Below, piece by piece: positions 3,621 to 36,834 of a DNA stretch of 64,000 bases; positions within the stretch are counted from its first letter, which is position 1, and each line of letters opens with the position of its first letter. The translations under genes were made by a program, and so were the position numbers. A model generated the notes under the pieces. That model searched no databases. It was not told the origin of the DNA and saw only the letters and a list, made by a program, of their open reading frames with translations. The stretch comes from Escherichia coli (GTDB lineage Bacteria; Pseudomonadota; Gammaproteobacteria; Enterobacterales; Enterobacteriaceae): the NCBI RefSeq assembly GCF_050920415.1, contig NZ_CP169309.1; one strand, given 5' to 3'.

Positions 3621-3634
3621 TGTGTATCCTTTAT

Positions 3635-6436
3635 TTATTCGACGTTCAGCGCGTCATTAACCAGATCTTGTTGCTGTTTCTGGTGAACGGACATATACCC
3701 TACCGCCGGAGAGGCGGAGGCCGGGCGGCCTGCATAACGCAGAGAAGCCCCAAACGGAATCACTTCACGGAAATGATGCTGGCTACAGTACCATGCGCCC
3801 TGGTTGAGCGGCTCTTCCTGGCACCAGACAAAATCCTTGACGTGAGCAAACTGCTGCAACACTTCCTGCATCGCTTTATGCGGGAACGGGTAGAGTTGCT
3901 CGATACGCACGATGGCGACATCGTGTTGATTGTTCTTACGACGTTGTTCCAGCAGGTCGTAATAAACCTTACCAGAACACATCACTACGCGCTTCACGCC
4001 CTTCGGATCAAGCTCGTCGATTTCACCAATGGCAGGCAGGAAGGTGCCGTTCGCCAGTTCTTCGAGGCTGGAAACCGCCAGCGGATGACGCAGCAGGGAT
4101 TTCGGCGACATCACCACCAGCGGACGACGCATCCCGCGCAGCGCCTGACGACGCAGCATATGGTAAACCTGTGCCGGGGTAGACGGTACGCACACCTGCA
4201 TGTTTTGTTCAGCACAAAGTTGCAGATAACGTTCCAGACGCGCGGAGGAGTGCTCCGGCCCTTGCCCTTCATACCCGTGCGGCAGCAGCATTACCAGACC
4301 ACACATCCGGCCCCATTTCTGTTCGCCAGAGGAGATGAACTGGTCGATAACCACCTGCGCACCGTTAGCGAAGTCACCAAACTGCGCTTCCCAGATGGTC
4401 AGCGTGCGCGGCTCTGCGGTGGCATAACCGTATTCAAACGCCAGCACTGCTTCTTCAGACAGTACGGAGTCCCAGACGCGGAACGCGCCCTGACCATTAT
4501 GGATATGTTGCAGCGGCGTGTAAGTGGAACCGTTGGACTGATTGTGGATCACCGCATGACGATGGAAGAAGGTACCGCGACCGGAGTCTTCACCCGACAG
4601 GCGGACCGGAATGCCTTCATCAACCAGCGTGGCGTAAGCGAGGTTTTCCGCGCCGCCCCAGTCGAACAGTTTCTCACCGGCAGCCATTGCCTGGCGATCG
4701 CCATAAATCTTGGCAACGCGAGACTGCATTTCAACCGCTTCCGGCACCGTACTGATACGTTTAGCCAGTTCCTGCAGGCGCTTCATCTCAACTTTGTTCG
4801 GGTACTCTTCGTCCCATTCGTGGTTGAGGTACGGCGACCAGGTGAAAGAGTGCATGTTCATCGGACGCCACTCTGCTACCACGCAATCGCCAGCATCCAG
4901 CGCATCACGGTACAGGTTAACCATCTCGGTGGCATCTTCCAGCGTCGCGACTTTTTCCTGCTCCAGCTTGTCAGCGTAGATTTTGCGCGGCGTCGGATGT
5001 TTTTTGATTTTCTGATACATCAGCGGCTGAGTTGCACTCGGCTCGTCGGCTTCGTTGTGGCCGTGACGGCGGTAGCACACCAGGTCGATGAAGACATCAC
5101 GTTTAAAGGTGTTACGGAAATCGAGCGCCAGACGGGTCACAAAGGCAACGGCTTCCGGATCATCCGCATTAACGTGGAAAATCGGTGCCTGTACCATCTT
5201 GCCGATATCAGTACAGTACGGCGTAGAACGGGCATCCAGCGGGTTAGAGGTAGTGAAACCGACCTGGTTGTTGATAACGATACGTACCGTACCGCCAACT
5301 TCATAACCACGCGCTTTCGACATGTTCAGGGTTTCCTGAACCACGCCCTGCCCGGTCACTGCGGCGTCACCGTGGATGGTGATTGGCAGCACTTTGTTGC
5401 TGCTCGGCTCATCGAGTCTGTCCAGACGGGCGCGAACAGAACCGATAACTACCGGGCTTACAATCTCAAGGTGAGACGGGTTAAACGCCAGCGCCAGGTG
5501 AACCAGGCCGCCGTCGGTCTGGAAGTCAGACGAGAAGCCCATGTGGTATTTCACGTCGCCCGTGCCGAGGTGTTCTTTATGTTTACCGGCAAACTCGTCG
5601 AACAAGTCTTGCGGTTTTTTACCCAGCACGTTAACCAGCACGTTCAGACGACCACGGTGCGCCATCCCGAGAACCACTTCACGGGTGCCGCTATTGCCAG
5701 CATGGCGGATAATCTCTTTAAGCATCGGGATTAACGCGTCACCGCCTTCCAGCGAGAAGCGTTTTGCGCCAGGGAATTTTGCGCCGAGGTAACGTTCAAG
5801 GCCTTCAGCGGCGGTCAGTTCGCTTAAGAAGCGTTTTTTCTCTTCGCTATTGAAAGTCGCGCGACCAGACTCGATACGCTGTTGGATCCAGCGTTTTTCT
5901 TCGGTGCTGGTAATGTGCATGTACTCGGCACCAATCGGGCCGCAGTAGGTTTGCTTGAGGGCTTCCAGCAGCTCGCCGAGTTTCATGGTTTCTTTGCCGC
6001 TGGCAAATGAACCGACGTTGAAGGTCTCCTGGAAGTCTGCTTCGGTCAGATCGTGGAAAGACGGATCCAGATCGGCCACTTTATCTTGCTGCCACAGTCC
6101 CAGCGGATCGAGATTCGCATGCTGGTGACCGCGGAAGCGGTATGCGTTAATGAGCTGCAGGACTTTAACCTGCTTCACATTGGTGTCAGGGTCGGAGATC
6201 GTTGAAGAGTAACGTGAAGCGTCTTTCGCCAGGCGGCGGAAATATTCACGCGTTTGAGAGTGGAATTGATCCGGTTTGACTCCCGTACCAGGTAACTGCT
6301 GGAACGTCGAACGCCAGTTAGCGTCAACCGAGTCAGGATCGGTTAAGAAGTCTTCATAGAGCTGTTCTATCCAGCTCTGGTTTGCGCCAGAGAGGTAAGA
6401 AGAGTCCAACCAGGCTTTCAAAGCGCTGTTCTGCAT
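3635..6436 (-). CDS. sucA: 2-oxoglutarate dehydrogenase E1 component
   Basis: 933 aa ORF starting [31 protein letters not shown]. Confidence 0.97.
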
Positions 6437-6609: not shown

Positions 6610-6690
6610 TTGTAGGCCGGATAACGCATTCACGCCGCATCCGGCACTGGTTGCCTGATGCGACGCTTGTGCGTCTTATCAGGCCTGGGT
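6610..6690. repeat. REP elements in sdhB-sucA intergenic region
   Basis: tgtaggccggataa...gcatccggca and gcctgatgcgacgc...gcgtcttatcaggcc palindromic units. Confidence 0.75.
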
Positions 6691-7422: not shown

Positions 7423-9189
7423 TTAGTAAGTACGAATCTTCGGCGGGAATGCCGGGCGCAGTTTCGGTTCCATGTTGACGCTTCGGCGCGTCATGGATTC
7501 CGACTCTGGCAGATACAGGGAGTGGCACAGCCAGTTTTCATCATCACGATCTGGGAAGTCGAAGCGGCTATGCGCGCCACGGCTTTCGGTACGGAAGTTG
7601 GCAGAAACAGCCGTTGCATACGCCGTTTCCATCAGGTTATCCAGTTCCAGGCATTCAACGCGCTGGGTGTTGAACTCGCTGGAAGTGTCATCCAGACGGG
7701 CATTTTTCAAACGCTCGCGGATCACTTTCAACTGCTCAAGCCCTTTTGCCATCGCATCACCTTCACGGAAGACCGAGAAGTTATGCTGCATACATTCTTG
7801 CAGTGCTTTACGAATCGCCACTGGATCTTCACCATTACGGTTGTTGTTCCAGCGATTCAGACGCTCCAGAGACGCTTCAACATCAGACTCGCTGGCATCG
7901 CGCAGTGCGCCCTGCTCGGCAATAGACTCTTGCAGATGCAGGCCCGCTGCGCGACCAAAGACCACCAGGTCCAGCAGCGAGTTGCCGCCAAGACGGTTAG
8001 CGCCGTGTACCGATACACAAGCGATTTCACCTACCGCGAACAGCCCCGGAACAACCACATCTTCGCCTTTCTCGTTCACCGTCAGCGCCTGACCGGTCAC
8101 TTTGGTCGGAATACCGCCCATCATGTAGTGACAGGTTGGGATAACCGGAATCGGCTCTTTCACCGGATCGACGTGTGCGAAGGTACGGGAGAGTTCAAGG
8201 ATACCCGGCAGACGGGATTCGAGAACTTCTTTACCCAGGTGGTCGAGTTTCAGTTTTGCATGTGGCCCCCATGGACCATCACAGCCGCGACCTTCACGGA
8301 TTTCGATCATGATGGAACGCGCCACCACGTCACGGCCCGCCAGATCTTTGGCGTTCGGCGCATAACGCTCCATAAAGCGTTCGCCATGTTTGTTCAGCAG
8401 ATAACCGCCTTCACCACGGCAACCTTCGGTGACCAGTACGCCCGCACCTGCTATACCGGTCGGGTGGAACTGCCACATTTCCATATCCTGCACAGGTACA
8501 CCTGCACGGATAGCCATGCCGACGCCATCGCCGGTGTTAATGTGCGCGTTGGTGGTGGACTGATAAATACGCCCTGCCCCGCCGGTTGCCAGCACAGTCG
8601 CACGGGCTTTGAAGTAAACCACTTCACCGGTTTCGATGCACAGTGCGGTACAACCAACTACCGCGCCATCCTGGTTCTTCACCAGATCCAGCGCATACCA
8701 CTCGGAGAAAATGGTGGTGTGGTTTTTCAGGTTCTGCTGATAAAGCGTGTGCAACAGTGCGTGACCGGTACGGTCAGCTGCCGCCGCAGTACGTGCCGCT
8801 TGCTCGCCACCGAAGTTTTTCGACTGGCCGCCAAACGGACGTTGATAGATACGACCATCATCAAGACGCGAGAACGGTAGCCCCATGTGTTCCAGTTCCA
8901 GAATCGCTTCCGGCCCGGTTTTACACATATATTCAATCGCGTCCTGGTCACCGATATAGTCCGACCCTTTTACGGTGTCGTACATATGCCATTCCCAGTT
9001 ATCTTCATGGGTATTACCCAGCGCAACGGTAATGCCGCCTTGCGCAGAAACGGTATGGGAACGGGTCGGGAAGACTTTGGAGAGCAGCGCACAGGTTTGG
9101 CCGCTCTGGGAAATTTGCAGCGCCGCGCGCATACCTGCGCCACCGGCACCAATCACAACTGCATCAAATTCTCTGACTGGCAATTTCAT
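7423..9189 (-). CDS. sdhA: Succinate dehydrogenase flavoprotein subunit
   Basis: FAD-binding N-terminus [19 protein letters not shown]; start trimmed to internal ATG that overlaps the sdhD stop. Confidence 0.95.
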
Positions 9190-9536
9190 CACACACCCCA
9201 CACCACAACGAATCCATAAATCACGTAAACCACCAGTGCAACGACAATCACCAGTTGCAGCATCAGGCGCAAAGCCAGTGGTTTAACGTAGTCGGTCAAC
9301 ACCTGCCACATGCCGATCCAGGCATGGATCAAGATAGAAAACAGCGCCAGCAGGGTGAACACTTTGGTGAACGCAGAGGCGAAGAAACCAATCCAGACTT
9401 CATATGTCAGCTCGCCACTGGTAGCGAAAAAACCGACCATATAAATGATGTAGAGCGTCAGGACGATAGCGGTAGCGCGAACGAGGATAAAATCATGTAC
9501 GCCATTGCGTCCTAATGCGGAGGCGTTGCTTACCAT
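9189..9536 (-). CDS. sdhD: Succinate dehydrogenase membrane anchor subunit
   Basis: 115 aa hydrophobic ORF. Confidence 0.95.
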
Positions 9537-13431: not shown

Positions 13432-13532
13432 TGTCAGCGCCAATGATATAAGACAGTAATTCACCATTTGGATTGTCCGCTCCACCCAACATGTTGTTTC
13501 CTTAAGGTTCCTACACCACAAAGGGAACACTC

Positions 13533-14703
13533 ATGCTGAGCAGAGAGGACTTTTACATGATAAAGCAAATGCGCCAGCAAGGTGCGTATATTGTTGATAT
13601 TGCCACTCAGGTTGGTTGCTCTGAGCGGACTGTCAGACGGTACCTGAAATACCCGGAACCTCCGGCCAGAAAAACACGCCACAAAATGGCCAAACTCAAG
13701 CCGTTCATGGACTATATCGACATGCGTCTGGCTGAGAATGTCTGGAACGGCGAGGTCATCCTGGCGGAAATCAAAGCGATGGGTTATACCGGTGGCCGTT
13801 CCATGTTGCGTTACTACATCCAGCCCAAACGTAAGATGCGGCCATCGAAGAAAACGGTTCGCTTCGAAACTCAGCCCGGTTACCAGCTACAGCATGACTG
13901 GGGAGAAGTTGAGGCTGAGGTTGCCGGGCAACGATGCAGGGTTAACTTCGCGGTTAATACGCTGGGGTTCTCACGTCGCTTCCATGTCTTCGCGGCACCA
14001 AAGCAGGATGCTGAACATACCTATGAGTCACTGGTCCGCGCCTTTCGCTACTTCGGCGGCAGCGTGAAAACCGTGCTGGTCGATAACCAGAAAGCCGCAG
14101 TGCTGAAAAATAACAACGGGAAGGTGGTGTTCAACTCCGGGTTCCTGCTGCTGGCCGATCACTATGGCTTCCTGCCACGGGCCTGCCGTCCACGAAGGGC
14201 CAGAACCAAAGGTAAGGTGGAACGGATGGTGAAATACCTCAAGGAAAACTTCTTCGTCCGGTACCGCCGGTTCGACAGCTTCGCCCATGTTAATCAGCTA
14301 CTGGAGCAGTGGATGGCTGACGTTGCCGACAGGCGGGAACTTCGCCAGTTCAGGCAGACACCGGAACAGCGCTTCACGCAGGAACAGGTGCATCTGCAGG
14401 CGCTGCCAGGTACGGACTTCGATACCAGCTACTTCGATATCCGTCATGTCTCCTGGGATGGCTATATCGAGGTTGGCGGGAACCGTTACAGCGTGCCGGA
14501 AAGCCTGTGTGGCCAGCCGGTATCAATACGGATCTCGCTGGATGATGAACTGCGATTTACAGTAATGAGCAACAGGTAGCATCGCACCGTCTCTGTTCGG
14601 CTGTATACGGCTGGCAGACCGTGCCGGAGCATCACGCCCCACTCTGGCAGCAGGTCAGTCAGGTGGAACACAGGCCGTTGAGTGCCTATGAGGAGCTGTT
14701 GTG

Positions 14704-14704
<1 letters not shown>
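13533..14704 (+). pseudogene. istA: IS21-family transposase IstA, apparent -1 frameshift near 14550-14580
   Basis: 348 aa ORF (HTH + DDE) stops at 14579; the last ~40 codons continue in another frame and end with TGA overlapping the istB ATG. Confidence 0.7.
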
Positions 14705-15499
<795 letters not shown>

Positions 15500-15556
15500 T
15501 GACCAATAGCGGACATTAAAAATGGCGAAAAACGGCCAATAATCTTGGCGTTGACA

Positions 15557-18254: not shown

Positions 18255-19312
18255 GTGCTGGCAAGGGATTGTTGCTCATCATCTGTCTGTTATTTCTACC
18301 GTTAAAATCTGCGCTTGCCCTGAACTGTTACTTTGGTTCATCCGGTGGTTCGGTAGAAAAATCGGAATCTATTCAACCATTTGCTGTGCCAGGGAATGCC
18401 AAACCCGGCGATAAGATCTGGGAGTCTGACGATATTAAAATTCCCGTCTATTGTGACAACAATACTAACGGCAACTTTGAGAGCGAGCATGTCTACGCCT
18501 GGGTAAACCCGTACCCGGGAATTCAGGATCGCTATTATCAACTCGGCGTAACTTACAATGGTGTTGATTATGATGCTAACCAGGGAAAAAGCCGCATCGA
18601 CACTAACCAGTGCATCGACAGCAAAAACATTAATATTTATACCCCTGAGCAGATCATCGCGATGGGATGGCAGAACAAAATTTGCTCTGGTGATCCCAAT
18701 AATATTCATATGTCGCGTACGTTTCTCGCTCGCATGCGGTTATACGTCAAGATACGAGAGATACCGCCGCATGATTATCAAAGTACGCTCAGCGATTACA
18801 TTGTGGTGCAATTTGATGGCGAAGGAAGCATTAATGAGGACCCAACCGCCCAAAACCTGAAATATCATATTACCGGTCTGGAAAACATTCGGGTATTGGA
18901 TTGCAGCGTCAATTTTTCTATTACCCCAGCCAACCAGGTCATTGATTTTGGTAAATTTAATGTACTGGATATCCGGCGACACAACATGACAAAAACATTC
19001 GGTATTAAAACGACAAAATCACAAAACGATCAATGTACCGACGGATTCAAAGTCAGCTCCTCGTTTTATACCGAAGAAACGTTGGTTGAAGAAGATAAAG
19101 CATTGCTGATTGGTAATGGTCTGAAACTACGTTTACTGGATGAAAACGCTTCGCCCTATACCTTCAACAAATACAGCGAATATGCCGACTTCACCAGTGA
19201 CATGCTGATCTACGAAAAAACCTATACGGCTGAACTTTCGTCTATTCCCGGCACTCCCATTGAGGCTGGCTCCTTCGATACCGTGGTGCTTTTTAAGATT
19301 AACTATAACTAA
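18251..19312 (+). CDS. ybgO: Fimbrial adhesin-like protein
   Basis: 353 aa from [15 protein letters not shown]... with signal peptide; ATGA overlap with ybgP. Confidence 0.88.
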
Positions 19313-19320
19313 TTTCCCAT

Positions 19321-19353
19321 GATGCCCTTTGCAACCGAAAGGGCATCTCTTTC
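19321..19353. terminator. Rho-independent terminator after ybgO
   Basis: gatgcccttt...aaagggcatc hairpin followed by tctttc. Confidence 0.7.
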
Positions 19354-19462
19354 AGAAAATTGCTGATTTTCCCCTTTTCCTTGATTGCTGTTATTTTTTC
19401 CTGGCCCGGCTTTCTTTATGCTGTATCGATACACCAAAGAGAAAATAATGAGGAAGCGAAGG

Positions 19463-20509
19463 ATGCCAGTTTTGCAGTGGGGAATGTTATGTGTGCTTTC
19501 ACTTCTCCTTTCTATTGGCTTCCTCGCGGTACATCTTCCGGCGGCACTATTACTTGGGCCAATGATCGCCGGAATCATCTTTAGTATGCGCGGAATTACT
19601 CTGCAACTTCCCCGATCCGCTTTTCTCGCCGCCCAAGCCATTCTTGGCTGCATGATTGCACAAAACCTAACCGGTTCGATTCTCACCACGCTAGCGGTGA
19701 ACTGGCCGATTGTGTTAGCTATTTTACTGGTGACGTTACTTTCCAGCGCCATCGTGGGTTGGTTATTGGTGCGCTATAGCTCACTGCCTGGAAATACCGG
19801 TGCCTGGGGTTCTTCTCCTGGCGGCGCGGCGGCAATGGTCGCTATGGCGCAAGATTACGGCGCAGATATTCGCCTGGTGGCATTTATGCAATATCTGCGA
19901 GTGCTGTTCGTCGCGGGGGCCGCTGTTCTGGTCACCCGCATGATGCTGGGCGATAACGCTGAAGCGGTTAACCAGCAGATCGTCTGGTTCCCGCCAGTGA
20001 GCATTAATCTCCTGCTTACAATTTTGCTCGCGGTCGCTGCCGGTACGGCGGGATGCTTGCTACGTCTTCCTTCCGGCACGATGCTCATCCCGATGCTGGC
20101 AGGCGCGCTGCTCCAGTCTGGTGAGTACATAACCATCGAACTACCGGAATGGCTTCTGGCGATAGCCTATATGGCAATTGGCTGGCGGATTGGTCTTGGT
20201 TTCGATAAACAAATATTACTGCGAGCATTGCGCCCGCTACCGCAAATCTTGCTGTCGATTTTTGCTCTGCTGGCTATTTGTGCAGGTATGGCGTGGGGAC
20301 TGACCCGGTTTATGCATATTGATTTTATGACTGCCTACCTCGCCACCAGTCCCGGCGGGCTTGATACCGTGGCGGTCATCGCCGCAGGGAGCAATGCCGA
20401 TATGGCGCTTATTATGGCGATGCAAACCCTACGCCTGTTCAGTATTTTGCTGACGGGGCCAGCCATTGCGCGGTTTATTTCAACCTATGCGCCGAAGCGG
20501 TCGGCCTAG
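19463..20509 (+). CDS. abrB: AbrB-family membrane protein (putative regulator/transporter)
   Basis: 348 aa polytopic membrane ORF from [12 protein letters not shown]...; convergent 4-bp overlap with nei. Confidence 0.9.
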
Positions 20510-26305: not shown

Positions 26306-27724
26306 TTATTTCCCCTTCCTCGCCGCCTCATACGCTGCTAACGTTCGTACTCTCGCTTCTTTGTGATCGACTATCGGTTGCGGATAATCCAGCGTCACAC
26401 CTGCTTTCTGCGCCCACTTCCACGGTTCATGCACCGCTTTCCCTGGTACATCACGCAACTCTGGTAACCACTGGCGGATAAACTCACCTTCGTGGTCAAA
26501 TTTCTCGCCCTGAGTTGTCGGGTTGAAAATACGGAAATACGGTGCAGCATCAGTTCCAGTAGAAGCCGCCCATTGCCAGCCACCGTTATTGGCTGCCAAA
26601 TCACCATCAATCAGTTGCGACATGAAATATCGCTCGCCTTCCCGCCAGTCGATCAGCAAATCTTTCACCAGAAAACTGGCAGTAATCATCCGCAGGCGAT
26701 TATGCATCCAGCCAGTGCTGTTAAGCTGACGCATGGCCGCATCAACAATCGGGTATCCCGTTTTGCCTTCCTGCCAGGCCTTTAAATGGGCGGGATTGCT
26801 TTGCCATTGCACGCGGTCGGTCCAGGCAATAAACGGTCGATGTTTACACAACGAGGGGTAATACGTCATCAGATGACGGTAGAACTCGCGCCAGATCAAC
26901 TCATTAAGCCAGACGCTACCGGCCCCACCGTCCAGCGCCTGCGGCTGTTCCGCCAACAGGCGATGCAGACACTGGCGAGGCGATAACCCGCCCGTTGCCA
27001 GGCTGGCGGACAAACGGCTGGTGCCTTCCACTGCAGGAAAATCTCGTTGTTGCTCGTACTCCCCTGCTCCGCTCTGGCAAAACTGGCGTAATTGCGCAAT
27101 CGCCGCTTTCTCTTCCACCGGGAAATGCGCAGTATCGAAAGGCTGACGAGGATAATTCAGCGTAATGGATGGCGCGGCTTCTATCATTACGCTACTACGT
27201 ACTTTTGGCGCAGCGACGCACTCCGGCACCCCTTCTCGCAGCCGTTTCAGCCAGGCGTTTTTAAATGGAGTAAAGACTTTGTACATCTCATGATTACCAG
27301 TCATCACCGCCCCCGGCGGCAGGATCACGCTGTCATCAAATCCTTCACACACCACGTTACGCAGCGTTCTCTCAACCTGCACATCCCGCGCCCGCTCATT
27401 CACCTCATACTGATAGTTATAAAACAGATGAGTAACACGATTTTCCGCGCACACCTGTTTAACTATTTCGACGCTGGCGGCAAAGTCATCCACTTCATGA
27501 AACAGCAAAGGAATGCCTTTTTCCGCCAGCGCGATTTGTAGCCCGTTCAGTTGTGCATTGATAAATTCAGCCTGACGCGGCGACACATTATGCGCCGCCC
27601 ACTGGCGTGGTGTAGCGATATACAACGCCAGCACGCGTGCAGACGAATTGCGGCAGGCGGCAGCAAGCGCGAGATTGTCGTGCAGACGTAAATCCTGGCG
27701 AAACCAGACCAGATGGGTAGTCAT
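26306..27724 (-). CDS. phr: Deoxyribodipyrimidine photolyase
   Basis: 472 aa ORF starting MTTHLVWFRQDLRLHDN. Confidence 0.96.
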   Translation of the reverse strand: MTTHLVWFRQDLRLHDNLALAAACRNSSARVLALYIATPRQWAAHNVSPRQAEFINAQLNGLQIALAEKGIPLLFHEVDDFAASVEIVKQVCAENRVTHLFYNYQYEVNERARDVQVERTLRNVVCEGFDDSVILPPGAVMTGNHEMYKVFTPFKNAWLKRLREGVPECVAAPKVRSSVMIEAAPSITLNYPRQPFDTAHFPVEEKAAIAQLRQFCQSGAGEYEQQRDFPAVEGTSRLSASLATGGLSPRQCLHRLLAEQPQALDGGAGSVWLNELIWREFYRHLMTYYPSLCKHRPFIAWTDRVQWQSNPAHLKAWQEGKTGYPIVDAAMRQLNSTGWMHNRLRMITASFLVKDLLIDWREGERYFMSQLIDGDLAANNGGWQWAASTGTDAAPYFRIFNPTTQGEKFDHEGEFIRQWLPELRDVPGKAVHEPWKWAQKAGVTLDYPQPIVDHKEARVRTLAAYEAARKGK

Positions 27725-28230
27725 AAAACTCCTGCATGGCGCAAGTTAATCACCCGCGGCCAAAGTTCGAAATAACGCTGCTCTGAAAGCCAGGCGTCAG
27801 GATAAAGCGCCATATAGTGTTTGATACGCATCAGCGGCGCAAGAAGCGGTTGCTCGCCACGGCGATAACTGTCGATAAGCGCCGCCAGTTGTAGACGTGC
27901 TGCGGAGTCAAGGTGTGGGCGAAAATAACCCTGAACGTGCATCAAAACGTTTGTATGATCGCGCCGATTGGCGGGATGAGAAAGCAAAACAATGACGCGT
28001 TGGCGGTACTGGTTGTAATAATCATCCAGATTTTGCCACTGGTGAATATCTGCCACAAACGGGCCAAGTTTGCGGTATTCCGGCTGGGAATGGGCCAGAA
28101 AGACGAGTTTATAGCGGCTGTGATAATCGAGAAGCGCCCCGCGCGTTAAGCCGTGTGATTTCAGTCGATGTAACTCATGAAGGGCGAAGATACGGATTAG
28201 AGTGCTGTCATCAAATCGTTGCTGATTCAT
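27721..28230 (-). CDS. ybgA: DUF1722 protein co-transcribed with phr
   Basis: 169 aa ORF, ATGA overlap with phr. Confidence 0.92.
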   Translation of the reverse strand: MNQQRFDDSTLIRIFALHELHRLKSHGLTRGALLDYHSRYKLVFLAHSQPEYRKLGPFVADIHQWQNLDDYYNQYRQRVIVLLSHPANRRDHTNVLMHVQGYFRPHLDSAARLQLAALIDSYRRGEQPLLAPLMRIKHYMALYPDAWLSEQRYFELWPRVINLRHAGVL

Positions 28231-28347
28231 TACTGCTCCTGAACGGTTTACAGGAGTAAGTGTAGACGTTGGGAAATGATATTTGTGAAGTTAATCCTGT
28301 TGTAGCAGGGCAAGATTACGAAAGCCCGCTCCCCGCAAGGACTGACG

Positions 28348-28893
28348 TCAGCTAGTTTCTGTCCATAGCTGCCCTTTCCATTCAAACGTGAAATCAATAA
28401 GTTCATCAGGGACATCGCAAACAATGTGAAGACGGATTTCTTCTCTGCCGTGACTCTTTTCACTAATTGCGTAACTGTCATGCTCTGGATTATTTAATTC
28501 TTTCAGCGGAAATTTTTCCTCGAAGGCTTTATTTAGCCGCCCCTGGTTTCCTTTTACAGCGAATAAATAATCACCTCCCTGTTTTTGTATCTTCTCTGCA
28601 ATATCTTTCTGGCAACCCATCGCATCAGTTGTGATGATTTTTCCTTTAATATCCAGCATGTTAAGAAGTTCCGGGGTAGCTGTAATCTCAATACCATTTT
28701 CAAAATCACCATATTGCTTCAAAAAATCGAGATGTGTTTCCCCAAAATCCTCTATATCTTCCCAACCTTCCGCACCCGAAATAACGGCGCAAATAGTCAA
28801 CAGTAGAATATCCGATAATTTATGCTCCACTTTCCAGGCTTGTCTGTAATCGGGGATAATAGAAATATGTTCCATCAATTTTTTAAGTTCCAT
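28348..28893 (-). pseudogene. ybfD: H-repeat-associated (ISAs1-family) transposase remnant, internally deleted and C-terminally truncated
   Basis: N-terminus [18 protein letters not shown]... typical of H-rpt proteins; only 181 aa where full length is about 378 aa; central region appears missing (recalled comparison). Confidence 0.7.
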
Positions 28894-29062
28894 TTTGTTC
28901 TCCTTAATTATGTAAGGAGTATTTGATCATGTATAAGCAATAAAAAACAGCTTCAGGTAATGAGGAATATCTCAATTTTTAAACATAAAATGCGAATTAT
29001 TTAGTACAAAAAAGCAGCGTTAAGTGAGTAGGCCACCGGAACCTCCCCGACAGCCTCTCGCA

Positions 29063-29096
29063 GAACCGTACGTGAAACTCTCGCTTCATACGGCTC
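29063..29096 (-). ncRNA. Group II intron ribozyme domain V
   Basis: Minus-strand GAGCCGTATGAAGCGAGAGTTTCACGTACGGTTC, 34 nt, with AGC triad and CGAGAG-type loop. Confidence 0.85.
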
Positions 29097-29099
29097 CCG

Positions 29100-30353
29100 T
29101 CAGGCAAACGCGCTTCCTGGTCCTGCTTTCCAGTGGGCAAACAACTCCGGCTTCTCTTTTGACAGCCTTTCCATTAGCTGACACGCCTTCGTCTTTCTAT
29201 ACCGCAGGGTTTTATATTTCTTTCTCGCCCACGCAATCAGCGTCAGATTAATATATCTGCATACTTTCTTCATCGCTGATTTGTGGTATCTCGCGTAATA
29301 ATTCAGCCACCCCGATATTATCGGATTCAGCCACTTCGCAATATCTTCGAGACTCATCTCCACCCTGCGTCTGATCCACAGTTTCCTGAGTTTTCCAATC
29401 ATGCCTTTCTGCGCACGGTTACTCGCCGCCGGGCTGAAACTCGTAAAGAGGTTTCCCCGCCGGTGGTTACGTGCTCTTCGCGCTCTGAACGTATACCCCA
29501 GAAAATCAAACTGCACTGTTTCATGGTTCGCCTGTCGTTCGCTGTCTTTGCAGTAAACTACTTTCGTTTTCTCCGGATGTAATTCCAGTCCACATTCCTG
29601 AAAACGTTTTGCCAGCTTATTCAGTAATTCCTCTGCCTGTTGTTTACTGCCACAATGAATTAATCCATCATCTGCATAACGGCACCAGGGAATTTCCGGA
29701 TAATGTAACGTCAGCCATTTATCAAACACATAGTGCAGAAATAAATTCGCCAGTACCGGGCTGATGACTCCACCCTGTGGCGTACCTTTATTTCTTTCCT
29801 TCAGTGTTCCATCCGGCATCTGCACCGGCGCTGTCAGCCACCGGCGAATAGACAGTCTTACCCATTTATCCGCACAATGTTTATCTACTGCCCTGAGTAA
29901 TAAATCGTGGGAGATATTATCGAATAACCCTTTAATATCAAACTCAAGACACCAGTCGTATTGCCAGCAACGTTTTCTGGTGACTGCTATTGCATCCAGC
30001 GCTGATTTTCCATGCCGGTATCCGTATGAATCATTCAGGAAATAACGCTCCACTAATGGTTCAAACGTTACCAGCACCGTCATCTGCGCTATTCGATCGC
30101 TTACTGTCGGTATTCCTAAAAGTCTTTTGCTGCCATCCTTCTTCGGAATTTCCACCGCACGCACTGGCGGCGGCATCCAGCTTCCCGACGATAACCTGTT
30201 CCAGATTTTGTACAGATTTCCTTTCAGATCCCGCTCAAAATCTTTCAGCGTCTGGTTATCCACTCCGGCAGCTCCGGCATTCGCCTTTATCCGCCGGTAC
30301 GCTTCCACCACATGCAATTTACTGACCTGAAACGGTTTTGTCTGTTCACACAC
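29100..30353 (-). CDS. Group II intron-encoded reverse transcriptase/maturase (no endonuclease domain)
   Basis: 417 aa; RT motifs LLGIPTVSDRIAQ and YADDGLI; C-terminal maturase X-like region; no HNH. Confidence 0.9.
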   Translation of the reverse strand: MCEQTKPFQVSKLHVVEAYRRIKANAGAAGVDNQTLKDFERDLKGNLYKIWNRLSSGSWMPPPVRAVEIPKKDGSKRLLGIPTVSDRIAQMTVLVTFEPLVERYFLNDSYGYRHGKSALDAIAVTRKRCWQYDWCLEFDIKGLFDNISHDLLLRAVDKHCADKWVRLSIRRWLTAPVQMPDGTLKERNKGTPQGGVISPVLANLFLHYVFDKWLTLHYPEIPWCRYADDGLIHCGSKQQAEELLNKLAKRFQECGLELHPEKTKVVYCKDSERQANHETVQFDFLGYTFRARRARNHRRGNLFTSFSPAASNRAQKGMIGKLRKLWIRRRVEMSLEDIAKWLNPIISGWLNYYARYHKSAMKKVCRYINLTLIAWARKKYKTLRYRKTKACQLMERLSKEKPELFAHWKAGPGSAFA

Positions 30354-30481
30354 AGCCTCCTCCTGCCTACAGTTGGGCTGTGATGCAGACTAGACTGGCC
30401 CCCTGAATCTCCAGACAACCAGTATCACTTAAATAAGTGATAGTCTTAATACTAGTTTTTAGACTAGTCATTGGAGAACAG

Positions 30482-30847
30482 ATGATTGATGTCTTAGGGC
30501 CGGAGAAACGCAGACGGCGTACCACACAGGAAAAGATCGCAATTGTTCAGCAGAGCTTTGAACCGGGGATGACGGTCTCCCTCGTTGCCCGGCAACATGG
30601 TGTAGCAGCCAGCCAGTTATTTCTCTGGCGTAAGCAATACCAGGAAGGAAGTCTTACTGCTGTCGCCGCCGGAGAACAGGTTGTTCCTGCCTCTGAACTT
30701 GCTGCCGCCATGAAGCAGATTAAAGAACTCCAGCGCCTGCTCGGCAAGAAAACGATGGAAAATGAACTCCTCAAAGAAGCCGTTGAATATGGACGGGCAA
30801 AAAAGTGGATAGCGCACGCGCCCTTATTGCCCGGGGATGGGGAGTAA
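30482..30847 (+). CDS. insC: IS2 OrfA (InsC)
   Basis: [30 protein letters not shown]... 121 aa. Confidence 0.93.
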
Positions 30848-31710
30848 GCTTAGTCAGCCGTTGTCTCCGGGTGTCGCGTGCGCAGTTGCACGTCATTCTC
30901 AGACGAACCGATGACTGGATGGATGGCCGCCGCAGTCGTCACACTGATGATACGGATGTGCTTCTCCGTATACACCATGTTATCGGAGAGCTGCCCACGT
31001 ATGGTTATCGTCGGGTATGGGCGCTGCTTCGCAGACAGGCAGAACTTGATGGTATGCCTGCAATCAATGCCAAACGTGTTTACCGGATCATGCGCCAGAA
31101 TGCGCTGTTGCTTGAGCGAAAACCTGCTGTACCGCCATCGAAACGGGCACATACAGGCAGAGTGGCCGTGAAAGAAAGCAATCAGCGATGGTGCTCTGAC
31201 GGGTTCGAGTTCTGCTGTGATAACGGAGAGAGACTGCGTGTCACGTTCGCGCTGGACTGCTGTGATCGTGAGGCACTGCACTGGGCGGTGACTACTGGCG
31301 GCTTCAACAGTGAAACAGTACAGGACGTCATGCTGGGAGCGGTGGAACGCCGCTTCGGCAACGATCTTCCGTCGTCTCCAGTGGAGTGGCTGACGGATAA
31401 TGGTTCATGCTACCGGGCTAATGAAACACGCCAGTTCGCCCGGATGTTGGGACTTGAACCGAAGAACACGGCGGTGCGGAGTCCGGAGAGTAACGGAATA
31501 GCAGAGAGCTTCGTGAAAACGATAAAGCGTGACTACATCAGTATCATGCCCAAACCAGACGGGTTAACGGCAGCAAAGAACCTTGCAGAGGCGTTCGAGC
31601 ATTATAACGAATGGCATCCGCATAGTGCGCTGGGTTATCGCTCGCCACGGGAATATCTGCGGCAGCGGGCTTGTAATGGGTTAAGTGATAACAGATGTCT
31701 GGAAATATAG
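30805..31710 (+). CDS. insD: IS2 OrfB transposase (InsD, DDE)
   Basis: 301 aa ORF overlapping insC in the -1 frame. Confidence 0.93.
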
Positions 31711-32342
31711 GGGCAAATCCACAGACTGCCCGACGCTGTCCCTTCGCTCCACGTTCATTACAAACGCTTCCTCACTACTACGAACAGCTCTGCCCCGGTT
31801 TCGCACATCGATACTCTCATACTCATAATTTCGGTTATTTGTATTTCTCTCTTGAAATTGCGACGACCGGTTCCCGTAGTTCCTGCAAAGAGCCTGATAC
31901 AGCGTCATGCCTGCTATACACCGGACACCATTCACGCAGCATTCGGAATTCACCCGTAAATTAATCCCGGCGGTATCACGAAACCTCCGGTTTTGATGTC
32001 ACTTAGGACTAACGACGTTTCAACACAGGTTCGGGTTTACTCATCTCACTGTATCTCACATAGGATCAGATCTCGTCTGATCGTTCCCCCTGCGCTCACT
32101 ACCATGGCTCTTTACCACAGCAGCCGGGGTTGTTTGGGACCGACTTCCGACAGCAGATCCCGGTGGGCCTGCCACCATCTCTTCACAAGCTTATGCTTAT
32201 TACATGCAAAACGTCCCGTTTTGCATCTTTGTGCCTACGGCACACGATGATCTTTCCCTGTACCACCTCCTCAGGAAGTGGTTTAAGGTTAATAACAAAA
32301 ATACCAATCATTTTAATAAAATATGACGAGTATTTATTTTCA

Positions 32343-32615
32343 TTATATTTTAAAGCATCCTAGCCCCTGCGATGCTCGCCATCGTTTTAACTCATCAACA
32401 ATCCCTTGGGGACTATCTTCTCTATCTTCAGATGGATAGAATATCAAATCACTACCATCTGGGTGCTGAGTGATTCTAATAAAATGACTTACAAGATCAT
32501 CAATAAACTTCGACAATTTATCGCCATGCAATTCCTCAGGTGGTTCAAAAAAATTATTTAGAAGTTCGATAAATTCATCTTCCGTATAATCTTCTAGATT
32601 ATTTTTAAACTCCAT
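32343..32615 (-). CDS. Colicin/pyocin DNase immunity protein (Im9-like)
   Basis: 90 aa; aligns with recalled Im9: DYTE.EF, HP(D/S)GSDLI(F/Y)YP, (D/E)DSP.GIV, (K/Q)WRA; starts 14 nt after the vgrG stop. Confidence 0.88.
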   Translation of the reverse strand: MEFKNNLEDYTEDEFIELLNNFFEPPEELHGDKLSKFIDDLVSHFIRITQHPDGSDLIFYPSEDREDSPQGIVDELKRWRASQGLGCFKI

Positions 32616-32629
32616 TACTACCTCCTTTT

Positions 32630-35600
32630 TTATTTATGCAATCGTATGTGGTTTTTAGGTGTGTTTACTCTAAGATTATCAATATCATAGACTTCTCCCC
32701 CATATTGGATTTCGTCAATATGATGAATTTCAAATGTACCTCGCCCCCCAACTCTTTGTCTTGATATAGTATAAGGTGCGCGTCCACGCTTTATCAACGT
32801 TTGGTTAGCTTTATTAAATTGGCTCAATAGTTCTGGACATTCACCTACAGCAGTCCAGAAAGCTGCCCTGAATTCATCAAAATTGTTAAATGACTTACTC
32901 CGAAGTTTATTTGCGACCTGTTGTGGAATTGGCACTCCTAAGCTTTTCCCCGCCTGCGACAGCCATCTTCCTGTACCTGCTAACACCTCCCCCTTACCTG
33001 TTACTGTTCCCGCTTCATCCCTTGCAGTTTTCAGATACACATATATTGGTGTTAATTCCGCACCGTCAGGAAAGACAAGTATCCAGTCATTAAAATTTCG
33101 CTCCTCCGGCATTGGAGAAGGCGGCGTGGTGATATCTGTTTTTTCATCGGGTATCGGATTAACATAAATATCAGGTAGATCAACTGGTTCGACAGGAGTT
33201 CCGGTGTGTATGGGCTGCTCTGAACCTTCTGGCTTTGCAGGCGTCCAAAATATTTTTGGTCCCGAATCAGACACAGGTGAAAATTCATAACGGGAAAATT
33301 CCTTATTCCACTCCATCAATGCTACCCGAACACCTTCAAGTTCCGAACCTGCGGGTGTGTGGTATCCGTATGTTCTCAATTCACCAGCAGTATTCCGCTG
33401 AAAGAGAAAGCGCGCCCGCGTAGCTGCCGTCTCTCCAGATTGCGCTTTACGACGTAGCTCATTTTCGAGCCACTGTTCATCCCGTCCAGGAACTTTATCA
33501 CTACCTTCACCGGCAGGTATTGGATATAGTGCTGATACTAGAACACCAAGGGCTGGCACCGTTTTTGATACACTTAAAAAACCTTCTCCACCCCATGCCC
33601 CTAATGTTCCCCATACGCGAGTTAAAACTCCCGCAGACTGTTCCGCCGCTAGTGGAACCGCAACACCCGCTGACGCAACTGTCATTTCCCCCGTCAGTGA
33701 GTTCGCTCCTGAAGTTTTTTTTGCTGACTGCGCAAGTTGCTCCACTTCATCGTCATGATAGTGTGTACCATAGCCGCAACAGTCATCCTCCACTGGCTGG
33801 GCAAATAGAGCCATATCACCAAAATGTTTCGATGGCTCCATGGTCGTACCAGCATCAGTGCAGCCTTTCTCCTTCAGACAAGATTTTGCGTATACAGGAA
33901 TTACCAGTTCATCTGAATCGTCCTTGTCTTCTTCTCCACCTTCTGATTCATCCTCATCACTAGGCTCTCCGTCATTCCCGCCGCCAGCATTCCCTCTGTC
34001 ATACTGCTCGTCAGCCAGAGCGTCCATAACTGCCGGTTGTAGTGTATTTATCGGCGTCCCCGGACTGCCCCCGCCATTCAGATTTATTTTCGGTCCGACA
34101 ATATCCACACCACCAGAATGAACGACCACAAACGAGCCCCCCACCTTCAGGCTTATCCGGCTGCTGCTCTCCAGCACGATATCCCCGTCCACCTTGATCC
34201 CCAGCGCGCCACTCACCTTCTCCGCCAGGTCGCCCTTCACCTCCAGACTGTGCGTTCCCTCCACCAGACTGATATGGTTCCCCGTCGTCTTATGCTCCTG
34301 CTTCCCTTCCACCGTCACTTTACGGTCGTTTCTGACATACAGGCCGTCATCGTGACTCACGCTCACCGTCCGGTCATTCGTCACCTTCAGCGTCTGGTCA
34401 TTACGTACCGTTATGCGCCGGTCGTTCGCCACCGTGATACTCTGGTCGTGACCCCCTTCTTTTCTGGTGCCGACCTCAACCGTCTGCCCCTTCACCACCC
34501 TTATCTTCTGGTCGTTACCGATGGTCTCCGTATGGTCATGCTTCACGTCCGTCCGCCGGTCGTTAAGCACCTCCGTGTCCATGTTCTTCTGCGCGTGGAT
34601 ATACACCTGCTCACTGTCCGTCGCATCCTCGAAACGCAGTTCATTAAAGCCGCTTCCTTTATAGGTCTTCGAGCGGATGGTCATCTGCGTCCGCGTGCCC
34701 GGTAAATCCCCCGGTGAACGGTTGTCCTCATGGTATGTCCGCCCCGTCACAATGGGCTGGTCCGGGTCGCCGTTCAGAAAGTCCACTATCACTTCCTGAC
34801 CCACACGCGGTATCGCCAGATTGCCGAACCCCGGTCCCGCCCATGCCTGCGACACCCGTATCCAGCATGAACTCTCCTCCGTCATCCCGTGATAACGGTC
34901 CCAGTGAAACTTCACCCGTACCCGGCCATGTTCGTCGCAGAATATCTCCTCGCCCTTCGGCCCGGTCACAATGGCACTCTGCGGGCCGTCCACCTTCGGC
35001 TTCGGCAGCGGCGCGTGACGCCACGTCCTGTCTGCCGGTATCACCTCAAACTGATTGCTCAGTGTCGTCCCTTCACCGTGACTCCCGTGCAGCGCCTGCG
35101 GCTGTTCTCCCCGCAGTGTGCTTCCCACAACCTGCCATTCCCGGTTCAGCGTCCCTGACGGATGGCCCGTCAGCCGGAACCGCGTTCCCGGCCACAGTCG
35201 CGCCGTGTTACACACCCCGCTCGCCGTCTCCGCCCCGTTCCGCCACCCTTCCGTCTGGTAACGCGCAAAATCCTGGCCATGCTGCTCATCCTTGAAACGC
35301 CCCGGATAATCAAATATCTCGTACTGCGTTCCCTGCCCGTTCAGGCTCTCCCCGTCATGGCTGTAGTACCCCGGCCACCCCGGCGTTTTGAACGTATAAT
35401 CCTGCGTCTCCACCGACGCCACGCTTATCTGCGCACGGTAACGGAAGTCGCTGATGTACTCTGTCGTGCCTCCGGTCGTGGTATTCGGGTTAAACGCCAG
35501 CGCCCCCATTCCCGTCAGCCCCGCCACGTCATCACACACCGCCAGCTTCTGTTCCGGCCCGTCCTGACTGCAGCGTTCATAAAAGAAGATACCTTCCTCC

Positions 35601-36085
35601 GCCCACAGCCGGGTCAGGAATGTCAGGTCGCTCTCCCCGTACTGCACGCAGAACTCCCGCGCCGGGTGCGCCTCATAGAACAGCGGCATCCACGCCGTCA
35701 CCCCGTTCTCTCTCAGAAGCTGTGCTGATATCGTCCCTATGTCCTGCTGCTGGAAGATACGGAAGTTCTGCCGTAACCCTGCCCGCCACAGCGGCGGGCT
35801 GATGCTCAGGGAATAACGCATCTGCCAGTCGTTGTTCTCACCGAGCTGCACCTCCGTCACGATACCGCTGACGTAACGCTGCGGGATATCACCCTGCCAG
35901 ACCGTCAGCACCGCGCTCTTCTCCAGAAAATCCTCCGCCGTCAGGTCAGACAGCCCGCTGGCGATATCCACATCCAGGATGAACGGCGTGCAGTGGTGCT
36001 GGTACAGACGGAAGCTCACCACCGCCGTCGCCATCTCCACGATACCGGCCACCGACAGCGTGAAACGTAATCCTTCTGAGGACAT
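32630..36085 (-). CDS. vgrG: Specialized VgrG spike protein fused to a C-terminal S-type-pyocin-like region and colicin E9-type HNH DNase
   Basis: N-terminal VgrG core (MSSEGLRFTL..., gp5-like VTVANDRRITVRNDQTLKVTNDRTVSVSHDD repeats); acidic linker; C-terminus GGRGTFEIHHIDEIQYGGEVYDIDNLRVNTPKNHIRLHK. Start taken at internal MSSEGLRF; the track ORF extends to 36118. Confidence 0.9.
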   Translation of the reverse strand: MSSEGLRFTLSVAGIVEMATAVVSFRLYQHHCTPFILDVDIASGLSDLTAEDFLEKSAVLTVWQGDIPQRYVSGIVTEVQLGENNDWQMRYSLSISPPLWRAGLRQNFRIFQQQDIGTISAQLLRENGVTAWMPLFYEAHPAREFCVQYGESDLTFLTRLWAEEGIFFYERCSQDGPEQKLAVCDDVAGLTGMGALAFNPNTTTGGTTEYISDFRYRAQISVASVETQDYTFKTPGWPGYYSHDGESLNGQGTQYEIFDYPGRFKDEQHGQDFARYQTEGWRNGAETASGVCNTARLWPGTRFRLTGHPSGTLNREWQVVGSTLRGEQPQALHGSHGEGTTLSNQFEVIPADRTWRHAPLPKPKVDGPQSAIVTGPKGEEIFCDEHGRVRVKFHWDRYHGMTEESSCWIRVSQAWAGPGFGNLAIPRVGQEVIVDFLNGDPDQPIVTGRTYHEDNRSPGDLPGTRTQMTIRSKTYKGSGFNELRFEDATDSEQVYIHAQKNMDTEVLNDRRTDVKHDHTETIGNDQKIRVVKGQTVEVGTRKEGGHDQSITVANDRRITVRNDQTLKVTNDRTVSVSHDDGLYVRNDRKVTVEGKQEHKTTGNHISLVEGTHSLEVKGDLAEKVSGALGIKVDGDIVLESSSRISLKVGGSFVVVHSGGVDIVGPKINLNGGGSPGTPINTLQPAVMDALADEQYDRGNAGGGNDGEPSDEDESEGGEEDKDDSDELVIPVYAKSCLKEKGCTDAGTTMEPSKHFGDMALFAQPVEDDCCGYGTHYHDDEVEQLAQSAKKTSGANSLTGEMTVASAGVAVPLAAEQSAGVLTRVWGTLGAWGGEGFLSVSKTVPALGVLVSALYPIPAGEGSDKVPGRDEQWLENELRRKAQSGETAATRARFLFQRNTAGELRTYGYHTPAGSELEGVRVALMEWNKEFSRYEFSPVSDSGPKIFWTPAKPEGSEQPIHTGTPVEPVDLPDIYVNPIPDEKTDITTPPSPMPEERNFNDWILVFPDGAELTPIYVYLKTARDEAGTVTGKGEVLAGTGRWLSQAGKSLGVPIPQQVANKLRSKSFNNFDEFRAAFWTAVGECPELLSQFNKANQTLIKRGRAPYTISRQRVGGRGTFEIHHIDEIQYGGEVYDIDNLRVNTPKNHIRLHK

Positions 36086-36258
36086 ATAAACCCCATAGCT
36101 ACCGCACTCATGGTGCAAACCATACGGGCTTATAAGAAAGGCTTAAGTGAGATATCTGCCAGATAGCAACTATTAGGAAAATATTTATATATATTTCATG
36201 AATATATATTTCGGTTGGTATAACGGTGTCTAAATATTCCTCTGAACATCTTCCTGAT

Positions 36259-36296
36259 ACAAAAAAACCGCCAGCGTTTCCGCTGGCGGTTTTCTT
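36259..36296. terminator. Rho-independent terminator downstream of ybfA
   Basis: aaaaaaccgccagcg-tttcc-gctggcggttttcttt hairpin with flanking A/T runs. Confidence 0.8.
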
Positions 36297-36315
36297 TGAA
36301 CGTAATATTTAGCAA

Positions 36316-36522
36316 TCAGTAAAAATCACCGGTTGCCTTTTCGGCCTGATCCATCCACACCGGTTTATCGCTGGTTTTCGACCAGACGCGGTGCAGGTAG
36401 CTGTAAAAGCGGGCGCGGTCTTTCCAGAAAAGCATGAAAGGCAGCGCCAAAACGCCCGCTGCAACCGCATAAGTACGGCGTAAAAAGATAAGCCATGCAG
36501 GATATTCTCTGTAGAGTTCCAT
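36316..36522 (-). CDS. ybfA: Small DUF2517 membrane protein
   Basis: 68 aa [36 protein letters not shown]. Confidence 0.88.
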
Positions 36523-36729
36523 ACTTTTCTCCCCCTTTTGTATCTACCCGGTGAATGGCACCGGAAAAATGAATTTGTTTATCTGATGAAAATAGTACCG
36601 CCTTTTGTGTAATTTTACTACTCATCCGACCACTTATTTTTGCTTATTGATGGTTTATTTACATTCACCCCGTAATTAAGTTACATAAAAGTTAAATTAA
36701 TACTAAACATTAGTTAAATCATGGCTTTT

Positions 36730-36760
36730 GCCATTTTTATACTTTTTTTACACCCCGTCC
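36730..36760 (+). promoter_or_regulatory. Candidate KdpE operator / kdpFABC promoter
   Basis: catttttatactttttttacacc T-rich direct repeat about 80 bp upstream of kdpF; assignment from recalled KdpE site. Confidence 0.4.
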
Positions 36761-36834
36761 GCAGATTTTTGCGAAATCTTTGCAGCCAGAATTCTACCCT
36801 TCCGGTATCACTTTTAGGCCACTGGAGGTGCACT

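Follow-up and report, generated by a model that had tools for sequence, protein, structure and literature searches.

A VgrG-DNase fusion gene and its immunity gene at the RhsC hotspot of Escherichia coli, a probable auxiliary effector module of a distant type VI secretion system

The stretch of DNA considered here, 64,000 nucleotides of an Escherichia coli chromosome (contig NZ_CP169309.1 of assembly GCF_050920415.1; hereafter the window), carries between the core genes ybgA and ybfA an accessory island which is very likely an auxiliary ('orphan') effector module of a type VI secretion system (T6SS), encoding a specialised VgrG with a bacteriocin-type killing module. A first-pass annotation, made from the letters alone, had reported an orphan vgrG-toxin-immunity island at this place; its observation is real and its main interpretation is largely right, but its promoter and H-NS part is unsupported, and it left out the fusion of VgrG with the toxin, a group II intron and an IS2 copy. 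The toxin-immunity cassette consists of the following features:

32630-36085, minus strand: specialised (evolved) vgrG of 1151 amino acids (ATG at 36085, coding part 36085 to 32633, stop codon 32630-32632)
33998-36085, minus strand: VgrG spike core, residues 1-696 (gp27-like part, gp5 oligonucleotide/oligosaccharide-binding (OB) fold and β-helix; Pfam span residues 33-622; GC content 0.60)
33908-33997, minus strand: acidic Gly/Asp/Glu-rich linker, about residues 697-726, read from the translation and from blastp end points
32633-33907, minus strand: portable toxin module, residues ~727-1151, beginning at the motif PVYAKSCLKEKGCTDAGT and placed by Pfam and PDB matches (GC content 0.45-0.47)
33035-33454, minus strand: Pyocin_S/inner-membrane translocation (IMT) domain, residues 878-1017
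32633-33010, minus strand: HNH colicin-type DNase domain, residues 1026-1151
32343-32615, minus strand: Im7-like immunity gene of 90 amino acids (PF01320, E-value 1.7e-32; Im7, E-value 4e-25 over the full length; GC content 0.35)

The open reading frame (ORF) of vgrG comprises 1151 codons (3453 nt) without an internal stop, and is identical in MFDS1022581 (NZ_CP169399.1), an E. coli chromosome whose segment 3,455,999-3,518,660 aligns with the whole window at 99.96-99.99% identity. NCBI has the exact 1151-residue protein under the name VgrG; at least 24 contigs carry it, and the places listed are all this locus. Its N-terminal part contains the Pfam domains Phage_GPD (residues 33-328), Phage_base_V (residues 385-451) and Gp5_trimer_C (residues 468-622), and the protein scores 583 bits against the NCBIfam VgrG model TIGR03361, for which the cutoff is 186. 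According to blastp, homology to ordinary VgrGs stops at the acidic linker, and the C-terminal part contains Pyocin_S (PF06958, E-value 3e-31) followed by Col-Pyo_DNase (PF21431, E-value 7e-50). Spike domains and a C-terminal toxin are thus united in one polypeptide, which is the architecture of a specialised VgrG effector.

Among PDB entries, the C-terminal 332 residues match klebicin G (E-value 2e-46) and the DNase of colicin E9 (E-value 4e-38), with further DNase matches to colicins E2 and E7 and pyocins S2, S8 and AP41. The catalytic residues HH...N...H...H are conserved in the alignment to colicin E9. There is also a partial NCBIfam match to the T6SS DNase effector VPA1263, which lies below the curated cut-off. 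A homologue search with the C-terminal 532 residues gave no protein above 57% identity among the 8000 candidates scored; the identical protein was found by exact look-up. The toxin module occurs on other carriers as well, namely Hcp (Usp, 46% identity), PAAR proteins and other, unrelated VgrGs, and the motif at its start is common to Usp and a VgrG fusion of Siccibacter. Neither receptor-binding nor outer-membrane translocation domains are present among the Pfam and PDB matches, and the island contains no ORF for a lysis protein; the toxin therefore resembles a nuclease bacteriocin in what it would do inside the prey, and not a diffusible colicin or pyocin.

Ahead of Pyocin_S, the region 33600-33907 (residues ~727-830) consists of conserved Cys-rich sequence (PVYAKSCLKEKGCTDAGT...FAQPVEDDCCGYG), after which comes a hydrophobic segment rich in Gly and Ala. 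The Cys-rich stretch has no Pfam match and marks the fusion point in the aligned Hcp and VgrG carriers.

The immunity gene starts 15 nt past the stop codon of the toxin. GC content falls stepwise from the spike core through the toxin part to the immunity gene, a mosaic of the kind usual for polymorphic toxins.

The first-pass annotation had stated that the window holds no Hcp, PAAR, TssA-M or adaptor genes, and this holds true: in a tblastn search with 28 proteins of a T6SS cluster (Hcp, two PAAR proteins, TssA-C, TssE-H, TssJ-M, TagH, VasI, a DUF4123 adaptor, VgrGs and effectors), vgrG is the only gene of the window that is matched. No T6SS gene is annotated in the collinear chromosome MFDS1022581 across the window or within 11 kb past either edge, so the island is not made non-orphan by an adjoining system. 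A cluster just past the window edges is rejected in view of the 11 kb of housekeeping genes found on each side in that genome.

MFDS1022581 does encode a complete T6SS cluster next to yafV (4.105-4.150 Mb), approximately 615 kb from the island. It contains tssB, tssC, tssE, tssF, tssG, tagH, tssJ, tssK, tssL, tssH, vasI, tssA, tssM and a VasL-domain gene, together with hcp, three vgrG and two PAAR genes, with no pseudogene flag on any of them. Over 696 residues, the island VgrG shares 94% identity with the product of the hcp-adjacent vgrG of this cluster; with that of a second one it shares 98% over 514 residues. With a complete T6SS at a distance in this relative and VgrGs of 94-98% identity within it, the island is probably an orphan in location only, and is best regarded as an auxiliary module rather than a relic. 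Of the two possibilities left by the first-pass annotation, a T6SS encoded elsewhere or a relic kept for its immunity gene, the former is thus favoured by the complete cluster in MFDS1022581 and by the intact ORF on the many deposited contigs, and the latter is not. The same cluster encodes an M23 DD-metalloendopeptidase effector (segment positions 19257-20018) whose first 23 residues repeat the N-terminus of the island VgrG at 96% identity, resembling a recombination scar from the 5' end of vgrG.

By homology and by analogy with published systems, the fusion protein would join the VgrG trimer, or spike, of the T6SS encoded elsewhere on the chromosome, and the spike carrying it would be fired into neighbouring Gram-negative cells; no adaptor would be required, since carrier and toxin are joined covalently. 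Pyocin_S is the inner-membrane translocation domain of nuclease bacteriocins and is present in 97.6% of the Colicin-DNase T6SS effectors of SecReT6 (PMC9040868), and in the island protein it may aid passage of the DNase across the inner membrane of the prey. The HNH DNase would then degrade the prey chromosome, while the Im7-like protein is predicted to bind the DNase and so to shield the producer and its kin. Secretion by the distant T6SS, DNase activity, the route of translocation, neutralisation by the immunity protein and expression are all to be read as predictions of this kind.

Several points weigh against an auxiliary module in working order. The T6SS is that of the near-identical relative MFDS1022581, from which its presence in the window's own genome is presumed, and T6SSs of E. 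coli are often repressed by H-NS in vitro (PMC13141884). The vgrG gene has no accompanying PAAR gene here, whereas the copy of the cassette in genome ET350 has one. Its leader is without a promoter consensus and follows the strong terminator of ybfA, so that vgrG may not be expressed. Moreover, the cassette is damaged in two other strains, being truncated by an ISAs1 element in RMDEC465 and annotated as frameshifted in ET350, and these two copies show that the module can decay.

Some of these points would also suit a relic, with a vgrG-toxin gene that has ceased to be expressed or fired and an island kept mainly for immunity against relatives still firing the DNase. Such a relic would fit the lack of local Hcp, PAAR and core genes and of a promoter consensus, the truncated and frameshifted copies just mentioned, and the decay of the mobile elements next door, where an ISAs1 copy has suffered deletions and an intron has been killed by IS2. 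It is nevertheless unlikely, as nothing interrupts the 3453-nt coding sequence, of which at least 24 contigs carry identical copies, the DNase retains its catalytic residues, and the nearest genome possesses a complete T6SS with closely similar VgrG paralogues. Furthermore, an immunity gene retained without its toxin was not seen among 5,426 complete genomes, in which four carry the immunity gene, always with the toxin.

It is very improbable that the island contains two genes, as annotated by RefSeq and its Prokaryotic Genome Annotation Pipeline (PGAP), namely a truncated vgrG pseudogene and a separate gene for a 403-residue S-type pyocin protein acting as a soluble bacteriocin or as non-covalent cargo. 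PGAP makes this split in four genomes (MFDS1022581, N96, RMDEC465 and ET350), and 'standalone' homologues of 405-490 residues are present in databases. However, there is no stop codon between the VgrG and toxin parts, and the full 1151-residue protein is called in other GenBank records. The internal start used by PGAP (Met749) would cost the conserved module approximately 21 residues, as the module start lies near residue 727 in comparison with Usp and the Siccibacter fusions. One of the 'standalone' homologues, from Enterobacter hormaechei, proves to be the tail of a continuous VgrG ORF of 1190 residues in a T6SS cluster (segment positions 2754-6326), of which only the pyocin part is annotated. 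In addition, the parts expected of a diffusible bacteriocin (a receptor-binding domain and a lysis gene) were not found in the island. A separate toxin gene is rejected in view of the absence of a stop between the parts together with the PGAP start that cuts into the conserved module, and the continuous ORF, the 1151-residue deposits, the module start at residue 727 and the Enterobacter ORF identify the split as an artefact. The artefact is systematic: PGAP labels one part of such fusions a 'vgrG pseudogene' with an incomplete C-terminus and the other an 'S-type pyocin domain-containing protein', and surveys built on PGAP calls would find too few specialised VgrG effectors and too many standalone pyocins.

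It is hardly probable at all that host (eukaryotic) cells are the main target of the fused nuclease, as proposed for Usp, whose toxin module is related to that of the island and which is used as a virulence marker of uropathogenic E. coli (UPEC; PMC2907695), since a cognate immunity gene of bacterial type is tightly linked to the toxin, Pyocin_S is tied to the crossing of the bacterial inner membrane (PMC9040868), and the homologous Hcp-ET3/4 and VgrG-NucSe1 are antibacterial (PMC6730261, PMC12992299).

The auxiliary module lies at the site where K-12 carries its RhsC element, as the first-pass annotation had stated, and its boundaries and core neighbours are as follows:

27721-28230, minus strand: ybgA, core flanking gene (full-length match to NF007549; annotation of the collinear genome)
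28269-36260, no strand assigned: accessory island of 8 kb occupying the ybgA/ybfA (RhsC) hotspot, its limits set by comparison with an empty-site strain
36117-36260, minus strand: AT-rich leader of 144 nt upstream of vgrG (GC content 0.32), aligning with the K-12 ybfA-rhsC spacer
36261-36296, minus strand: intrinsic terminator of ybfA, part of the core genome (16-bp hairpin and U run; -27.6 kcal/mol, z -6.55 against shuffles)
36316-36522, minus strand: ybfA, core flanking gene, annotated in the collinear genome and in K-12

In the empty-site strain MS1718, ybfA and ybgA are adjacent and homology to the window ends at 28268 and restarts at 36261, which gives the island as 28269-36260; the ybfA terminator has its last base at 36261, directly at the island edge. 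All island genes (vgrG-toxin, immunity gene and the ISAs1 remnant with its intron) are on the minus strand, IS2 being on the plus strand. According to the annotation of MFDS1022581, the gene order of the window is sucDCBA, sdhBADC, gltA, a fimbrial operon, abrB, nei, pxpACB, ybgI, dtpD, phrB, ybgA, the island, ybfA, kdpFABCDE, speF, potE, pgm ... nagD, and the sole structural difference between the two is a 1.3-kb insertion (IS2) in the window at 30391-31721.

K-12 is homologous to the window on both sides of the island: one homologous stretch extends from kdpA across ybfA as far as 36117, and the other, from dtpD, takes in ybgA and reaches into the H-repeat. Its ybfA-ybgA interval contains rhsC-ybfB-ybfO-ybfC and three H-repeat fragments, and the RhsC placement is therefore correct. 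The island contains no ORF for an Rhs/YD-repeat core protein, and none is annotated in the collinear genome. It does possess other traits of an Rhs element, namely a distal H-repeat (ISAs1), a known Rhs site and a leader as in rhsC. Both of its ends, the 144-nt leader and the ISAs1 remnant abutting ybgA, are common to the K-12 RhsC element, which fits the earlier proposal of an Rhs-type element that has been replaced or remodelled.

As far as ~30 nt short of the vgrG start codon, the leader shows approximately 95% identity with the K-12 ybfA-rhsC spacer. It is carried by most E. coli genomes and is absent from MS1718; it therefore belongs to the resident element of the hotspot and did not arrive with vgrG. 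Within it, an AT tract of 45 nt (36168-36212, GC content 0.13) includes the string quoted in the first-pass annotation, which occurs once, at 36181-36211. The tract had been read as a possibly H-NS-silenced, independent promoter of vgrG. The tract does exist, but the promoter is not borne out, as the leader is common to rhsC and no sigma-70 consensus was found. A promoter of vgrG alone, imported with the gene, is ruled out by the occurrence of the tract at K-12 rhsC. The consensus scan of 35900-36800 gave no site against 1.4 expected; this negative is weak, because the same crude scan also missed the ybfA terminator, which is confirmed by folding. The strength of that terminator makes a promoter within the leader plausible, and genomic SELEX (systematic evolution of ligands by exponential enrichment) in K-12 has reported a site of the RpoE holoenzyme in the ybfA-rhsC spacer (PMC5493296). 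Silencing of the leader by H-NS is plausible by analogy with the T6SS of enterohaemorrhagic E. coli (EHEC; PMC13141884).

The contents of the ybfA-ybgA site differ among strains, as expected of a hotspot:

MS1718: empty site
K-12: RhsC element
NZRM4169: Rhs element
R32_14_1F: a different Rhs, plus intron and ISAs1
window and MFDS1022581: vgrG-DNase
N96: vgrG-DNase and a further effector module; leader carrying IS66

In N96, the IS66-family element interrupts the leader at a point between the start of vgrG and the AT-rich tract (corresponding to 36150-36158 of the window), and the homologous blocks around it have 9 bp in common, as a target duplication would leave.

Joining of ybfA to vgrG is rare, being found in 2 of the 5,426 complete genomes with matches covering at least 80% of the query. 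The toxin-immunity cassette is present in four of them, at three Rhs-type loci, and a copy of ISAs1 follows the immunity gene in each of these locations:

ybfA/ybgA (rhsC site): MFDS1022581 and N96
next to yibH (rhsA site): RMDEC465, vgrG truncated by ISAs1
next to yncG (rhsE site): ET350, PAAR gene upstream, annotated as frameshifted

The rest of the island is made up of three nested mobile elements:

28303-29023, minus strand: main part of an ISAs1 (H-repeat) remnant (NCBIfam transpos_ISAs1; right inverted repeat at ~28303-28313)
32246-32260, minus strand: left terminal 15 nt of the same ISAs1, CAGGGAAAGATCATC, cut off by the intron (uninterrupted target in N96 and K-12)
29024-32245, minus strand: group II intron, 1886 nt without IS2 (5' GTGTG, 3' ...CAC), inserted 15 nt inside the left end of ISAs1
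31758 (ATG) to 29100 (stop), minus strand: ltrA, reverse transcriptase (RT)/maturase (TIGR04416, 428 bits)
30391-31721, plus strand: IS2, 1331 bp (NCBIfam TnpA and TnpB), absent from MFDS1022581

The ISAs1 remnant spans 32260 to 28303, has the terminal repeats CAGGGAAAGAT and CAGGGCAAGAT and has undergone internal deletions. The vestigial H-repeat transposase noted earlier at 28348-28893 is indeed an ISAs1-family fragment, orthologous to ybfD of K-12; owing to a deletion of 245 bp at 28690, as compared with K-12 ybfD and N96, this ORF of 181 residues is a composite of two transposase segments.

The intron and IS2 together make up approximately 40% of the ybgA-ybfA interval. Rfam (RF01999 and RF00029) identifies the intron domains D1-D4 at 32176-32059 (93 bits) and D5/D6 at 29098-29023 (63 bits), and the intron ends, read against the uninterrupted target, fit the consensus 5' GUGYG and 3' AY. 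IS2 is flanked by a 5-bp target duplication (CAGAC, at 30386-30390 and 31722-31726) and splits ltrA at codon 11, so that this copy of the intron is neither intact nor mobile. Without IS2, its sequence agrees at 100% over 1925 nt with that of an intact copy (cluster segment positions 7475-9435), which lies at the tail end of the MFDS1022581 T6SS cluster and likewise sits with an ISAs1. A frameshift of ltrA in the window is ruled out, as the frameshift belongs to the MFDS1022581 copy and the window sequence equals the intact copy once IS2 is removed. A literature search for group II introns in H-repeats (H-rpt) found none.

The island of MFDS1022581 has an intron copy with three substitutions and a 1-nt deletion that frameshifts ltrA. 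That the copy of the window matches the one of the cluster instead may be due to gene conversion between these loci or to re-homing.

As to its origin, the island may have arisen by cassette exchange at the RhsC hotspot, between the resident leader and the resident ISAs1 remnant; the group II intron would have entered the ISAs1 remnant afterwards, and IS2 the intron. A broader reading, possible but rather doubtful, is that the hotspot serves as a fixed 'expression site' with exchangeable cargo, having the resident leader on one side and the resident ISAs1 on the other. Whole toxin-immunity cassettes might then, equally tentatively, be traded among the Rhs loci, the RhsC site included, and the tail end of the main T6SS cluster, and copies of ISAs1 and the identical copies of the group II intron inside them could conceivably, with no greater confidence, supply portable homology for it. 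If this is true, H-repeats would be functional cassette boundaries for the shuffling of T6SS effectors and not junk. One Rhs site can, in any case, stand empty or house either an Rhs toxin or a VgrG toxin, with the leader and the H-repeat boundary unchanged.

Elsewhere in the window, a ybgD-ybgO-like fimbrial operon has its usher gene split by an IS21-family element (ISEc62, istA/istB) at ~13440-15555, as placed from the collinear genome. Rfam naRNA4 (CssrE, derived from repetitive extragenic palindromic (REP) sequences) matches at 2216-2286 on the minus strand and 6615-6685 on the plus strand, with 76.5 and 73 bits, respectively.

The island adds a rare E. coli example of a spike-fused DNase to a class of weapon which is already known; it leaves the current understanding of T6SS effector function unchanged and brings no new biology. 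Its closest known relative is VgrG-NucSe1 (SARI_02603) of Salmonella enterica subsp. arizonae, which together with its immunity protein SARI_02602 belongs to the T6SS of Salmonella pathogenicity island 21 (SPI-21) and contributes to interbacterial killing (PMC2907695, PMC12992299). Compared by size and architecture, both are evolved VgrGs (1201 residues there, 1151 here) with an S-type pyocin domain and HNH DNase at the C-terminus, followed by an immunity gene of colicin/pyocin type. However, VgrG-NucSe1 is encoded inside a T6SS core cluster, in another species and T6SS lineage, while the island is an orphan at an Rhs hotspot. In its C-terminal part, VgrG-NucSe1 is related to Usp (PMC2907695, PMC12992299). 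The Usp or Hcp-ET3/4 DNase toxins of uropathogenic E. coli, which are T6SS effectors (PMC6730261), share with the island protein a toxin module (46% identity over 435 residues) that starts at the same motif, PVYAKSCLK.KGCTDAGT, and is followed by immunity genes; their carrier is the tube protein Hcp instead of the spike protein VgrG, and their genomic site is another. The nuclease colicins and pyocins (ColE2, ColE7 and ColE9, pyocins S2 and AP41, and klebicin G) possess a homologous translocation-plus-DNase region and an Im protein, but the island toxin would travel by T6SS contact and not by diffusion. The K-12 RhsC element shares the chromosomal site, the 144-nt leader and the terminal H-repeat by ybgA, yet the island is without the Rhs/YD-repeat protein and PAAR, and its effector is fused to VgrG instead of being Rhs cargo. 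It joins the orphan vgrG islands with effectors, which are well known in E. coli (PMC6730261, PMC13141884, PMC10761095).

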